This document shows, in pieces, positions 9,101 through 13,593 of a stretch of 64,000 bases of DNA. A model generated the notes under the pieces. That model made no database searches. It was not told the origin of the DNA and worked only from the letters and a program-made list of their open reading frames with translations. The position numbers and the translations under genes are program-made. This DNA comes from Planctomycetota bacterium (GTDB lineage: Bacteria; Planctomycetota; GCA-002687715; DRQF01). Position 1 is the first letter of the stretch; every line of letters starts with the position of its first letter. Where the stretch lies: assembly GCA_036479435.1 (NCBI GenBank), contig JAZGFI010000113.1, positions 1-64,000 of the forward strand. The letters run 5' to 3'.

Positions 9101-10645
9101 CTAAGGGGCGAGCATTAGCCGCAACATCGTCGTGCCTGCAGCATCGACGCGGATGATGAAGACGTCACCGTAGTCCTGCTCGCTCAGCACGATCTTCTCC
9201 TTGACTCCGAGCGCTTTGGCAATCGCTGGGACCGTGTTGGAGTGGCCGGCGACGACGACACATCCTCCCTCGTACTCGTCTTGGATCTTCTTGACAGTCA
9301 GGTCCGGGCGTTGTGCCTTGACCACCTGGACTTCGAGCCGATGGGACTGGGCGCAAGGTTGCACGGTTTGCTGAGTGCGCTTGAACTGTGAAGCCAAGAC
9401 CGCGTTGATCTCAGCGGTCGCGAGTAGGGCGGTGAGGTTGGCGGCGCGTTTTTTGCCCAGCTCGCTGAGGTCGGGATTGCGCTCTCCCTTTTCGATGATC
9501 TTCTCGGCGTGGCGCAGCAAGATAACGGTCGTGGTCTTGGTGTTGACGGCCGGGGCTGGCCCGGTGCCCGCGATGATTTGCCGGGCGACACCCCCGATAA
9601 TCTCATTCGGTACCGGAAACGACAGGTTGTACTGCAAGAGCAGCCACTTCCCCTCGCGCTTGATAAGAGTGCCGCTACCGCGGCAAATACCGAGTTTACG
9701 GTGCCCCAGGATCTCATCGAAAGTGACGAGTTTGCCGGCCTGCGCGGTCGCGACGTTTCGTTCGAGCGGCACGTAGATCCAAGCACTCGTGCCTTTGAAG
9801 TGGGGTTTGCAAAAACTCAGGAAGGCCTCTTTGGTCCAGCGCTCACCAGCATCGGTGCCCAAGAAAACGGCTTCGGCGGCAAAGTGAGCGAAGTATCGCT
9901 CGGTATCGCCTTTGGCCGCTGCATCGTGGAAGTCATCGAGGACATCATCGATGTCGCTACGCGGACTTCTCTGAATACTCGAAATGGAGTTGGCAAAGGC
10001 TGCCGCGACGTTTGCCTTTGCATCGCTCGCATTCACCTTTGAAGCGAGGAGGTCGATGCGGATCTTGAGGGGATTTAGAGCGTTGAGAGCCTTCAGCGCC
10101 GTCTGAATTTTGTCGTCACGGGTGCCGATCACCGTGATCTTTCCGCGGCGCCAGCGCGATTCCACACTGGGTGCGGCATCGCCAAACTCAGCCCGCCAAA
10201 ACGTGAGCTGTCCGATTTCGTGGGGAGCCTCGGTCGTCAAACGAAGAGCGCAAATAGCGGCTTTTCCCGTCGCGAAAATGTGAATTCTCGATGCATGGAT
10301 GCGGTGCTTGAGTCGAAGTGACTTTAGGAATGCGAGCCGCGTTTTTGGCGTCGACATCTCGGGGCCGTCGACGGGGATCGTCACCGCCACCTGGCCTTTG
10401 GCCGCGAGGGCTTGGCCGAAGGTGGAGAAGTCGAGCGCATCGAAGGCGTCCTTTTTTGCGGTTGGCTTTAGGATCAACAGCAAAGGGTAGACGTCAGCGA
10501 CGCGGTGCCCTTCGGGCCTAAAGGTCTTTTGAGTCGAACGTTTAGTCGAGGGCGCCTTGTCGGCGGATACGGTGCCTTGCTGCGCCGCCAGAACCGGCGT
10601 TAGGACTGCCAACATCAGGATCAAAGAACTCAAATAACGGCGCAT
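9101..10645 (-). CDS. Secreted fusion: N-terminal alpha/beta domain + SnoaL/NTF2-like domain + histidine phosphatase domain
   Basis: Signal peptide; LDDFHDAAA...FLGTDAGERW...QYNLSFP (SnoaL-like); LLRHAE, SQFKRTQQT and VAGHSNT (His-phosphatase). Confidence 0.75.
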   Translation of the reverse strand: MRRYLSSLILMLAVLTPVLAAQQGTVSADKAPSTKRSTQKTFRPEGHRVADVYPLLLILKPTAKKDAFDALDFSTFGQALAAKGQVAVTIPVDGPEMSTPKTRLAFLKSLRLKHRIHASRIHIFATGKAAICALRLTTEAPHEIGQLTFWRAEFGDAAPSVESRWRRGKITVIGTRDDKIQTALKALNALNPLKIRIDLLASKVNASDAKANVAAAFANSISSIQRSPRSDIDDVLDDFHDAAAKGDTERYFAHFAAEAVFLGTDAGERWTKEAFLSFCKPHFKGTSAWIYVPLERNVATAQAGKLVTFDEILGHRKLGICRGSGTLIKREGKWLLLQYNLSFPVPNEIIGGVARQIIAGTGPAPAVNTKTTTVILLRHAEKIIEKGERNPDLSELGKKRAANLTALLATAEINAVLASQFKRTQQTVQPCAQSHRLEVQVVKAQRPDLTVKKIQDEYEGGCVVVAGHSNTVPAIAKALGVKEKIVLSEQDYGDVFIIRVDAAGTTMLRLMLAP

Positions 10646-11064: not shown

Positions 11065-11179
11065 CGCTTGTCCTTTTGCGTTGCAGTGGGAATGGAATAG
11101 CAAACATAGGTTTTCATCGCTACTCATGCGGGTCAAGTTCGTCTTTTAATGTGTGAGTAGATCAGATGAAGCACTGTCA

Positions 11180-11926
11180 ATGGGCTCCTCGGAGCCGAAT
11201 GCCGTGGATAAGGGTGGTGTTGGCGGCGAGGATGCTGGCTGGCGATCGCTGTTTCGCGAGACATCAAGGGATCGTCTCGGGCGATCCGGGGCCAGCGCCC
11301 TGGACTCACAGGAACTTATTGGGGTCATCTTGGGCCTGGAAACGGGAGCCCAAAGCCGCCATGACTGCCTGGGAGAACTGTGTTCGCGTTACGATTCTTT
11401 GCGGTCTTTGGCCGCAGCCGATTTCGAGGAATTTTCCGCGATCCCGGGGATGACGCCAAAAAGGGCCGCCGTCTTGGCCGCGAGCTTCGAGCTTGGCCTC
11501 CGAGTCCGGCGTGACCCCGCAAAAAAAAGACCGCGCCTCAGCAGCGCCCAAGCGGTCTTTGAGTGCGTGCGCGAAGAGCTGCAATCACTCGAGGTCGAAG
11601 TCCTTGAGGTTTTATCTCTCGACGCGAAGAACGGCCTCCGTCGCCGCGATCGTGTTTCTTGTGGTACTTTGACCGGAAGCCTTGTCCACCCCCGTGAGGT
11701 GTTCAAGTCGGCGATCAACGCCCGCGCGGCATCGGTGGTCGTGGTACACAACCATCCCAGCGGCGATCCCGAACCAAGCCCCGAGGATGTCGCCATCACC
11801 GACCGTTTGTTCGCCGCGGGCGAGATCATCGGGATTCGACTTGTCGATCACGTCATCGTCGGAGACGGTCGTTACGTTTCTTTGGCGGAAAAGGGGTTCT
11901 TCAAGACTCTGGTGGCTTGCCGATGA
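11180..11926 (+). CDS. radC: RadC family JAB-domain protein
   Basis: N-terminal HhH region, VHPREVF, HNHPSGDPEPSPED and DHVIVG motifs. Confidence 0.92.
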   Translation: MGSSEPNAVDKGGVGGEDAGWRSLFRETSRDRLGRSGASALDSQELIGVILGLETGAQSRHDCLGELCSRYDSLRSLAAADFEEFSAIPGMTPKRAAVLAASFELGLRVRRDPAKKRPRLSSAQAVFECVREELQSLEVEVLEVLSLDAKNGLRRRDRVSCGTLTGSLVHPREVFKSAINARAASVVVVHNHPSGDPEPSPEDVAITDRLFAAGEIIGIRLVDHVIVGDGRYVSLAEKGFFKTLVACR

Positions 11927-12004
11927 GTTTTGCTGCAGTGGCCGATCCACCGAGATGTTTGTGCTCACGCGAACCTAGACCCCGCAGTTATTGGAGGAGA
12001 GCAC

Positions 12005-12514
12005 ATGTCTAAGCCTTTTCAATTTCGCCTCGTAGCCACCAAGGACGGACCCGCCGCCTTCGTTGTGGGTGATAAGGGGCTGTCGCGCTCTTATCTGCCT
12101 GGGCCCAAAGAGTCGGACCTTCGCCACCGCATCCAGGATGAATTTCCCGATGCGGCCGAGAAAAAGAGCCTCTGGCCCGCTTTTGCCGCGGACCTCAAGA
12201 GGTTCTTTCGCGGTCAAGACGTCTCCTTTGATGTCGACTTGGATATGGCCGGGGTCACGGAATTCCAAGCCAAGACCTACCGCGCCTTGAGAAGGGTCCG
12301 AGCGGGCAAAACCCTGAGTTACGGCCAATTGGCGGCTAGAGCCGGGCGCGACGGAGCGGCGCGGGCCGTCGGTACGGCGATGTCCCGAAACCCCTTTCCG
12401 CCCGTGGTACCCTGACATCGCGTCTTGGGAGCCCAGGGTGGGCTCTGCGGATTCACGGCAGAAGGTGGTCTAGAACTCAAGCGCCGCATGCTAGAGCGCG
12501 AAGGTGTGGTCTAA
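12005..12514 (+). CDS. ogt: Methylated-DNA--protein-cysteine methyltransferase with in-frame TGA (12413-12415) at the catalytic Cys; probable selenoprotein
   Basis: SYGQLA...ARAVGTAM..NPFPPVVP-[TGA]-HRVLGAQGGLCGFTAEGGLELKRRMLEREGVV-TAA; GGAGGAG RBS before ATG 12005. Confidence 0.88.
12416..12452 (+). promoter_or_regulatory. Putative bacterial SECIS element
   Basis: Perfect stem GAGCCCA/TGGGCTC (12429-12445) with a G-rich apical loop 20 nt after the UGA; possible lower stem CGCG/TGCG. Confidence 0.7.
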
Positions 12515-12581
12515 GCCGATTGTCGCGCTCGAAATCGTCGCATAGACTCTGAGCTGAGAAGAGTTTTGCCGGAGGAAGTTG

Positions 12582-12788
12582 ATGACGGACGAAAAGGCCA
12601 TTCCTGACGAGTTTTTGGCCATGCTGCGTTGCCCGGCGTGTCGCTCGGAATTGAATCTCAAAGAATCTGGCGACGCTTGGTGGTTGACCTGCCGCAACGA
12701 AGCCAAAGAATGTGGCTTGTCGTTTCCGGTGGAAGACGGCATCCCTCACTTGGTCGTGGAATCGGCGCGCAAGCCCGAGACTCCCTGA
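12582..12788 (+). CDS. Trm112/YcaR family protein
   Basis: LAMLRCPACR...L.C...C..SFPVEDGIPHL; GGAGG RBS. Confidence 0.88.
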   Translation: MTDEKAIPDEFLAMLRCPACRSELNLKESGDAWWLTCRNEAKECGLSFPVEDGIPHLVVESARKPETP

Positions 12789-12843: not shown

Positions 12844-13593
12844 TTGTACGCTCTCATCTCCGATCTCCACAGCAACATCGAAGCTTTGGACGCCGTCATG
12901 GAAGATATGCAGGCGTTTCCTGTGCAGCAGATCAGGTGTCTCGGAGATGCTATTGGATACGGCCCGAATCCGCGGGAGGTCCTGAAGCGGGTTGCCGACT
13001 GTGAGTTCACCCTCATGGGGAATCACGAAGAGGGGCTGCTGTTCTACGCCGAGGATTTCAATCCCCGAGCTCGCGCCGCACTCGATTGGACTCGGGATCA
13101 GCTCAATGACCCCAGTTGTGACAAAGACGACAACTACTCCTTTTGGTCTCTCATCGACTCTCTGCCGAAAGTCGAGCGCCGGGACGACGCGCTCTTTGTC
13201 CATGGCTCCCTTCGCAATGAGACCAAGGACTACGTGATGCCCGAGGACATCGACAACCTCGACAAAATGGCGGAGATTTTCTCCCTCATGGACCGCAATC
13301 GTTGTTTTTTCGGCCACACCCATATTCCGGGGGTTTGGACGGAAGGAGGCGTCTTTAAACGCCCAGCAGAGCTGGACTACGAGTACGTTGTTCCCTCAGA
13401 GAAGGTTGTTATCAATGTCGGTTCGGTGGGGCAGCCGAGAGACGGTGATAACCGTGCTTGCTATGTGCTCGTCGATGAGGATCGCATTATCTTTCGGAGA
13501 GTCGAATATGACTACCGCAAGACGATCAAGAAGATCCTCAATATCGACGAACTCGGAGATGCTCTCGCGGCTCGTCTGAAGGTAGGACGCTGA
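12844..13593 (+). CDS. Calcineurin-like metallophosphoesterase
   Basis: SDLHSN, LGD, GNHE, HGS, GHTH and NVGSVGQPRD motifs. Confidence 0.92.
   Translation: MYALISDLHSNIEALDAVMEDMQAFPVQQIRCLGDAIGYGPNPREVLKRVADCEFTLMGNHEEGLLFYAEDFNPRARAALDWTRDQLNDPSCDKDDNYSFWSLIDSLPKVERRDDALFVHGSLRNETKDYVMPEDIDNLDKMAEIFSLMDRNRCFFGHTHIPGVWTEGGVFKRPAELDYEYVVPSEKVVINVGSVGQPRDGDNRACYVLVDEDRIIFRRVEYDYRKTIKKILNIDELGDALAARLKVGR

Follow-up and report, generated by a model that had tools for sequence, protein, structure and literature searches.

The stretch of DNA analysed here (the window, 64,000 nt from a contig of a Planctomycetota bacterium) carries an ogt gene whose reading frame is interrupted by a TGA at the codon of the alkyl-accepting residue, and the question is whether this codon ends the protein or is read as selenocysteine (Sec). 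Judged from the sequence, its relatives and the host genome, ogt is very probably a genuine selenocysteine O6-alkylguanine-DNA alkyltransferase (Ogt/MGMT). The features on which the argument draws are as follows.

11153..11926, forward strand: radC-like JAB-domain gene upstream of ogt (profile match)
11993..11999, forward strand: Shine-Dalgarno-like GGAGGAG in the sequence, 5 nt upstream of the ATG at 12005
12005..12514, forward strand: ogt gene, 169 aa with the UGA read through, N-terminal domain plus C-terminal HTH/active-site domain
12413..12415, forward strand: in-frame TGA, predicted selenocysteine U137 at the alkyl-accepting position, in place of the Cys codon of PCHRV
12422..12452, forward strand: predicted bacterial SECIS, with lower stem 12422-12425/12449-12452, upper stem 12428-12435/12439-12446 and loop GGG 12436-12438
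12452..12454, forward strand: Phe150 codon, at the human Tyr158 position in the alignment of Sec forms
12512-12514, forward strand: ogt stop codon TAA, 32 codons beyond the TGA
12579..12788, forward strand: small 69-aa ORF, conserved beside ogt in the family
12844..13593, forward strand: calcineurin-like metallophosphoesterase gene downstream of ogt (profile match)

The 69-aa ORF encodes what we take, from its motif, to be a Trm112-like protein. Farther upstream, on the reverse strand, positions 9101-10645 encode a 514-aa protein in which a SnoaL-like domain is fused to a histidine-phosphatase domain, the N-terminal part being without a match.

The earlier note, made from the letters alone, had placed the TGA exactly on the catalytic Cys of the PCHRV motif and had seen the frame continue to a normal Ogt C-terminus, and both readings hold. 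The TGA aligns with a column in which Cys is invariant among 53 Cys-type homologues, and if UGA is read as Sec the product would carry a P-U-H-R-V motif. Downstream of the TGA, the reading frame and the conserved residues are intact. The read-through protein scores 88 bits against TIGR00589 (ogt; cut-off 46.4) and 104.2 bits against PF01035 (cut-off 27), and both matches cross the TGA; the profile search gave no match to PF02870 at 1e-4. The residues Y106, R120, N129, K159 and E166 are invariant in the 54 alignment rows, and together with H138 they presumably correspond to human Y114, R128, N137, K165, E172 and, for H138, H146. The structure model built from the 54-row alignment has a pLDDT of 96.7 and a complete two-domain fold (a single-sequence prediction reached only 36.6), and Foldseek superposes it over its whole length on solved Ogt/Ada structures with TM values of 0.77-0.80. 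A profile scan found none of the Ada-type N-terminal Zn-binding/AraC domains in the product, which is therefore not a bifunctional Ada. Identity as an ATL protein was also rejected, since ATL proteins consist of the C-terminal domain only and have Trp or Ala at the active position, whereas the ogt product has two domains; the three Trp forms of the order make up a separate clade. The active-site loop contains an extra cysteine, Cys148 (12446-12448), 11 residues past the Sec position, whose equivalent occurs in 1 of 108 Sec forms among the matches listed. A Se-S contact between U137 and Cys148 is conceivable.

The loop of the candidate SECIS hairpin lies 20 nt past the UGA. The upper stem has 8 bp with its terminal G-U pair and 7 bp without it, the latter being the 7-bp stem reported earlier at this spacing, and the lower stem has 4 bp. 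Under a hand-written rule, the hairpin agrees with all four published bacterial SECIS criteria (loop of 3-9 nt, stem of 4-16 bp, G in the first two loop positions, spacing of 16-37 nt, MFE <= -7.5). It likewise resembles the bacterial consensus model as summarised in the Fig. 2 legend of PMC13188914 in its 3-nt loop, 8-bp upper stem, leading loop G with a GG pattern, 20-nt spacing and energy below -7.5 kcal/mol. It differs from most other selenoprotein candidates of the same genome in that its loop has no G-U: by eye, the loop is GGG (or AGGGU with the closing pair open) versus GGU, GUU or CGUG in most of the others. With this atypical loop, Sec insertion at the ogt UGA may be less efficient.

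Taken alone, the folding energy of the hairpin exceeds chance only modestly. As many as 66 of 200 shuffles of a 60-mer fold as stably as the hairpin region (z -0.45), compared with 20/200 for a 45-mer and 3/200 for a hand-picked 23-mer, and the folding z-score was dropped as proof of a SECIS, the 60-mer being not significant. Among 5000 synonymous recodings, 1.3% equal the hairpin and 30% give some hairpin at <=-4; of 4000 randomly drawn TGA codons of the same genome that are followed by an open frame, 0.65% carry a hairpin about as strong.

The weightier evidence comes from comparison with other genomes. Of 401 Planctomycetota genomes searched for the P-U-H-R pattern, 8 have it, in nine genes, with no match for the reversed-pattern controls; in metagenomes, it occurs at no fewer than 120 loci. 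The resulting 129 genes and loci, their metagenome part being the matches listed, comprise 116 distinct sequences; five were left out (three not Ogt, two cut by contig ends), leaving 111 sequences in 34 clusters at 70% identity among the matches listed. One cluster (L097) holds 45 of these 111 listed Sec-Ogt sequences and has a near-invariant hairpin with an AGGU-like loop at +21; we read it as probably one lineage with a fixed Sec-Ogt. In an interval fixed beforehand (+14 to +36, <=-8 kcal/mol), a hairpin occurs in 77/114 TGA forms among the matches listed, versus 10/42 Cys forms. In a narrower interval chosen after inspection of the data (+18 to +25, <=-4), the figures are 93/111 TGA forms and 25/34 cluster representatives, again among the matches listed, versus 3/42 Cys forms. 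When the comparison is confined to the phylum (narrower interval, <=-8), hairpins follow 8/9 TGA codons but only 2/28 Cys codons, the Cys set being 30 of 78 Cys-Phe matches less two left out for want of an ORF. In terms of clusters among the matches listed, 27 of 34 combine the change to Sec with a hairpin, and the equivalents of human Y114 and R128 are retained in 107/110 and 109/110 listed Sec forms, respectively. The work on engineered AGT (PMC4150793) suggests that Sec forms might dispense with the Asn hinge. The main Sec patterns required this Asn and were thus blind to its loss; the sole pattern free of that constraint yielded one true match, in which the Asn is kept. Outside Planctomycetota, a looser pattern matched 2 of 201 genomes of the phylum to which a Syntrophaceae MAG belongs, one match being true (hairpin and Phe) and the other due to chance.

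All eight Sec-Ogt genomes have selA or selB above cut-off; as proof, this co-occurrence is weak, because 75 of 101 Planctomycetota genomes have selA above cut-off. The Sec form is the sole PF01035 match not only in the host but also in 3 of 5 other Sec-Ogt genomes checked. A survey of 2006 lists Planctomycetes among the phyla whose genomes were then too few for a judgement.

The genomic neighbourhood bears on how the TGA arose. The radC gene stands beside ogt in 14/14 order-level loci and in 0/6 Sec loci from other families, and the metallophosphoesterase gene in 13/14 order-level loci. This radC-ogt-phosphoesterase locus is common to ogt and its Cys-type orthologues, which implies that the switch from Cys to Sec happened in place. 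On synteny, ogt is thus a vertical orthologue of the Cys-type gene at the same locus, apparently switched there; horizontal acquisition of a Sec ogt is not supported, the gene sitting at the syntenic locus of its Cys orthologues. The order contains 30 PF01035 matches, namely 23 Cys, 3 Trp and 3 TGA forms and one weak fragment that was left out. The three TGA forms are the host ogt and both paralogues of one further genome (G002), one syntenic with ogt and the other in an ada/alkA-ogt pair. In G002, TGA occupies the catalytic codon of both of these unrelated paralogues, with separate hairpin registers (L085, C243:500-4000; L016/L086, C41), and an Ada-Zn/AraC/AlkA gene precedes one of them. Each of the 23 genomes of the order has selA, yet Cys is kept in 7 of 8 same-family genomes, which implies that Sec is not required for function.

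On a tree of 58 rows and 109 columns with the catalytic column masked, the nine Planctomycetota Sec genes need seven changes, of which strongly supported branches force only two. A single origin of all nine is rejected (p-AU 0.00125); a single origin of the host ogt (G000) and its G002 orthologue is not (p-AU 0.226). Nine hairpin registers occur among the Sec-Ogt genes listed, and the ogt hairpin is alone in its own (1 of 100 hairpin-bearing Sec genes among the matches listed), a pattern that fits independent invention of the SECIS within coding constraint. The earlier note had looked to homologues that carry the TGA at this codon together with a covarying hairpin. Such TGA homologues with hairpins exist; covariation with the nearest Sec homologue does not, the hairpin of the G002 orthologue lying 2 nt nearer the UGA and showing none with that of ogt. 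Varied pair types occur within another register, whose rows had been chosen by pairing. In addition, a Cys-type Ogt (L076/L027, G011:C248) has a strong 10-bp hairpin right after its Cys codon and groups with the G294 Sec gene (93/85 support); it may be a reverted Sec gene.

These data also bear on the possibility that the TGA is a nonsense mutation, ogt being a recent pseudogene with an incidental hairpin, as the earlier note would have concluded from close homologues that were all Cys-type and had no conserved hairpin. The close homologues do not present that picture, yet the closest relatives are mostly Cys, the hairpin register is unique among the 100 listed, and a small class of TGA forms with Tyr and no hairpin (6/111 among the matches listed) probably consists of errors or nonsense changes. 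On the other hand, the stop coincides precisely with the catalytic codon, and the host genome is rich in selenoprotein candidates and has no second Ogt; the frame and the conserved residues behind it have not decayed; the hairpin agrees with the consensus and belongs to the top 1.3% of synonymous recodings; and the same change has come with hairpins in most of the clusters listed (27/34). A nonsense mutation is thus highly improbable.

If ogt is a selenoprotein gene, then, as the machinery, hairpin and homologues suggest, SelB on the hairpin 20 nt downstream would bring Sec-tRNA(Sec) to the UGA and the 169-aa protein would be made. In this protein, the Arg finger R120 would flip the alkylated guanine out, and the selenolate of U137, ionised at neutral pH, would take over the alkyl group by a single SN2 displacement. 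The spent protein would presumably be the Se-alkyl-selenocysteine form, and one selenium would be lost per repair. Such single-turnover alkyl-transfer chemistry follows from the family and from the engineered human AGT-U145. No second Ogt-family gene was found, so the cell would be able to reverse O6-alkylguanine directly only when supplied with selenium. If the UGA is not read through, the product would be a 136-aa protein lacking the active-site loop. It might be proposed that this truncation is the main product, an ATL-like lesion binder gated by selenium, with Sec read-through as a minor route. The atypical loop, the position of the HTH and Arg finger ahead of the UGA, and the failure of the profile search to find a separate ATL gene in the host genome (92% complete) would suit such a dual product. 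However, the ATL-type homologues of the order retain these parts and have Trp at the site, and we consider the dual product very improbable.

Full-length synthesis of a Sec-Ogt requires a host that decodes UGA as Sec, and the components that the earlier note proposed to look for, selA, selB, selD and tRNA-Sec, are all present above cut-off, selA, selD and tRNA-Sec on contig C117 and selB on contig C237. The host selD itself holds one TGA. At the same 92% completeness, ogt is the only PF01035 match of the genome, and the profile search did not find the Ada Zn domain PF02805 in it. The UGA might instead be read as Cys or Trp, through a suppressor or genome-wide recoding, and UGA-decoding Cys tRNAs do occur in some bacteria. 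Nevertheless, the tRNA-Sec is the only UCA-anticodon tRNA among the 44 found, and a separate UGA suppressor tRNA was accordingly rejected; genome-wide recoding was rejected as well, TGA being the commonest stop codon (626 of 1423 long ORFs). A tRNA may have been missed in the part of the genome outside the assembly, and a Cys or Trp reading has about the same very low probability as the dual product.

A scan of the host genome by coding potential and hairpin yielded 427 read-through candidates, 54 of them with a hairpin at <=-5 kcal/mol, and the motifs of about 30 suggest true selenoproteins. Apart from ogt, 21 hand-picked candidates (two in one gene) were scanned; 12 match thioredoxin-fold, AhpD, peroxiredoxin, HMA, deiodinase or Fdh families at E<=1e-5, these NCBIfam matches lying mostly below the family cut-offs, and nine have no NCBIfam match, one of the nine being DUF3179 in Pfam. 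Six candidates whose TGA is followed by a good hairpin but which have no NCBIfam match, L218 (C295:7575), L221 (C126:2863), L224 (C97:31014), L227 (C294:2479), L231 (C209:1614) and L232 (C46:7967), comprise two FG-GAP repeat proteins, two U-x-x-C proteins and two C-U proteins without a Pfam match, and possibly represent uncatalogued selenoprotein families. Another host locus, L220 (C124:11000-11900), encodes HMA-like repeats in which at least two TGA codons stand in frame, a CGUG-loop hairpin following each of them.

A sequencing or assembly error for TGC or TGT has a negligible probability and was rejected as the origin of the TGA, for although the support consists of assembled contigs rather than raw reads, identical contigs stand at the codon in 4/4 runs covering it, from three studies among them. 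Single contigs of runs X1, X2 and X4 (the three studies) match all 1201 bases compared with zero differences, X1 and X2 possibly being the source of the sequenced DNA itself, and a contig piece of X6, from another sample, matches 12303-12453, including the TGA codon, also with zero differences. The choice between TGA and TGC/TGT, raised in the earlier note, thus falls to TGA at the level of contigs, and its expectation that standard annotation would truncate the gene is borne out by the public protein collection, whose entry is the 136-aa form. A look-up blind to records bearing U did not find the 169-aa form there. This truncated record illustrates a practical annotation gap.

Another feature of the Sec forms concerns the residue at +13, the human Tyr158 position. 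It is Phe in 100/100 TGA forms bearing a hairpin (<=-2) among the matches listed; the 11 listed forms without a hairpin have Tyr in six cases and Phe in five. By cluster, again among the matches listed, Phe is found in 27/27 with hairpins versus 1/7 without, and the combination of Sec, hairpin and Tyr was never seen among the Sec forms listed. Cys patterns in 151 genomes of the phylum give 78 Phe and 60 Tyr (about 57% Phe, a few chance matches included), and Phe is universal in the syntenic family orthologues of the order. In these Phe counts kin are not independent, the Cys baseline covers a single phylum, and in 14/27 clusters at least two of the three bases of the Phe codon pair in the lower SECIS stem; consequently, the cause may lie at the protein level or elsewhere. 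In M. tuberculosis OGT, the Y139F change is described as lowering the affinity for alkylated DNA, with catalysis expected to be little affected (PMC5751216). The literature searched, namely the main texts of openly available papers, contained no mention of the Phe link. That Sec-Ogt is repeatedly re-invented, widespread and mostly mis-annotated, and arises only on a Phe background at this position, is a tentative proposal that we think somewhat unlikely as a whole. If it is true, the loop hydroxyl would be incompatible with, or made needless by, an active-site selenolate; natural Sec alkyltransferases would have an active-site chemistry of their own, with alkyl groups transferred faster or over a broader range, or with the selenium recovered; and in genomes such as the host's, where the Sec form is the sole Ogt, the avoidance of mutations would hinge on the supply of selenium.

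Selenoproteins whose function is known are mostly redox enzymes with repeated turnover. An alkyl acceptor that works once and uses up an expensive Sec for every lesion would be an odd case among them, and it bears on why Sec is used over Cys. The locus also offers a clean test set: within one family, Sec and Cys forms of the syntenic orthologue share about 50% identity, and a selection already exists in E. coli (MNNG on an ada/ogt deletion background).

Based on the results presented above, ogt belongs to the known, predicted Sec-Ogt family and is not a new kind of protein; what is added here is the several origins, the metagenome loci (at least 120), the 8/401 genomes of the phylum and the Phe link. 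The family was first reported as a selenoprotein in 2005 with CHY0809 (PMC1287953), described as the sole case known at that time. Later reports cover Olavius symbionts (two sequences), GOS (one Sec versus 2,879 Cys forms) and algae, and Sec-Ogt is tabulated in reviews of 2022 and 2026 and stands on standard prokaryotic selenoprotein lists. The earlier note was therefore right that Sec forms had been predicted computationally; as to their rarity, Sec forms are commoner than the early tallies had implied. No biochemical study of a natural Sec-Ogt was found in the literature searched, which had the same scope as above. Compared by description, ogt resembles CHY0809 in family, in the UGA at the active-site Cys codon, in the stem-loop just downstream, in the full Sec machinery and in being known by prediction only; unlike CHY0809, it comes from a different phylum, Planctomycetota, and Sec forms now fall into 34 clusters among the matches listed, with several origins. 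Engineered human AGT U145 has Sec at the same alkyl-accepting site, repairs O6-methylguanine damage in vivo, protects an E. coli strain without ada and ogt from MNNG, and still works with N137A, a change that the C145 protein does not tolerate (PMC4150793). It differs from ogt in its artificial, UAG-based and SECIS-free Sec insertion, its human scaffold and its evidence, a survival assay only (PMC4150793). Finally, the ogt model superposes on M. tuberculosis OGT (4bhb), E. coli Ada-C (1sfe) and human AGT (1eh6) with TM values of 0.77, 0.80 and 0.70. It shares with the Cys-type Ogt/Ada-C/MGMT proteins the two-domain fold, HTH, Arg finger, Asn hinge, HR motif and C-terminal Lys/Glu, and differs from their structures in the predicted Sec for Cys and in the extra Cys148 of the active-site loop; its Phe at the Tyr158/Tyr139 position is that of the laboratory mutant OGT-Y139F (4wxc), its top sequence match.
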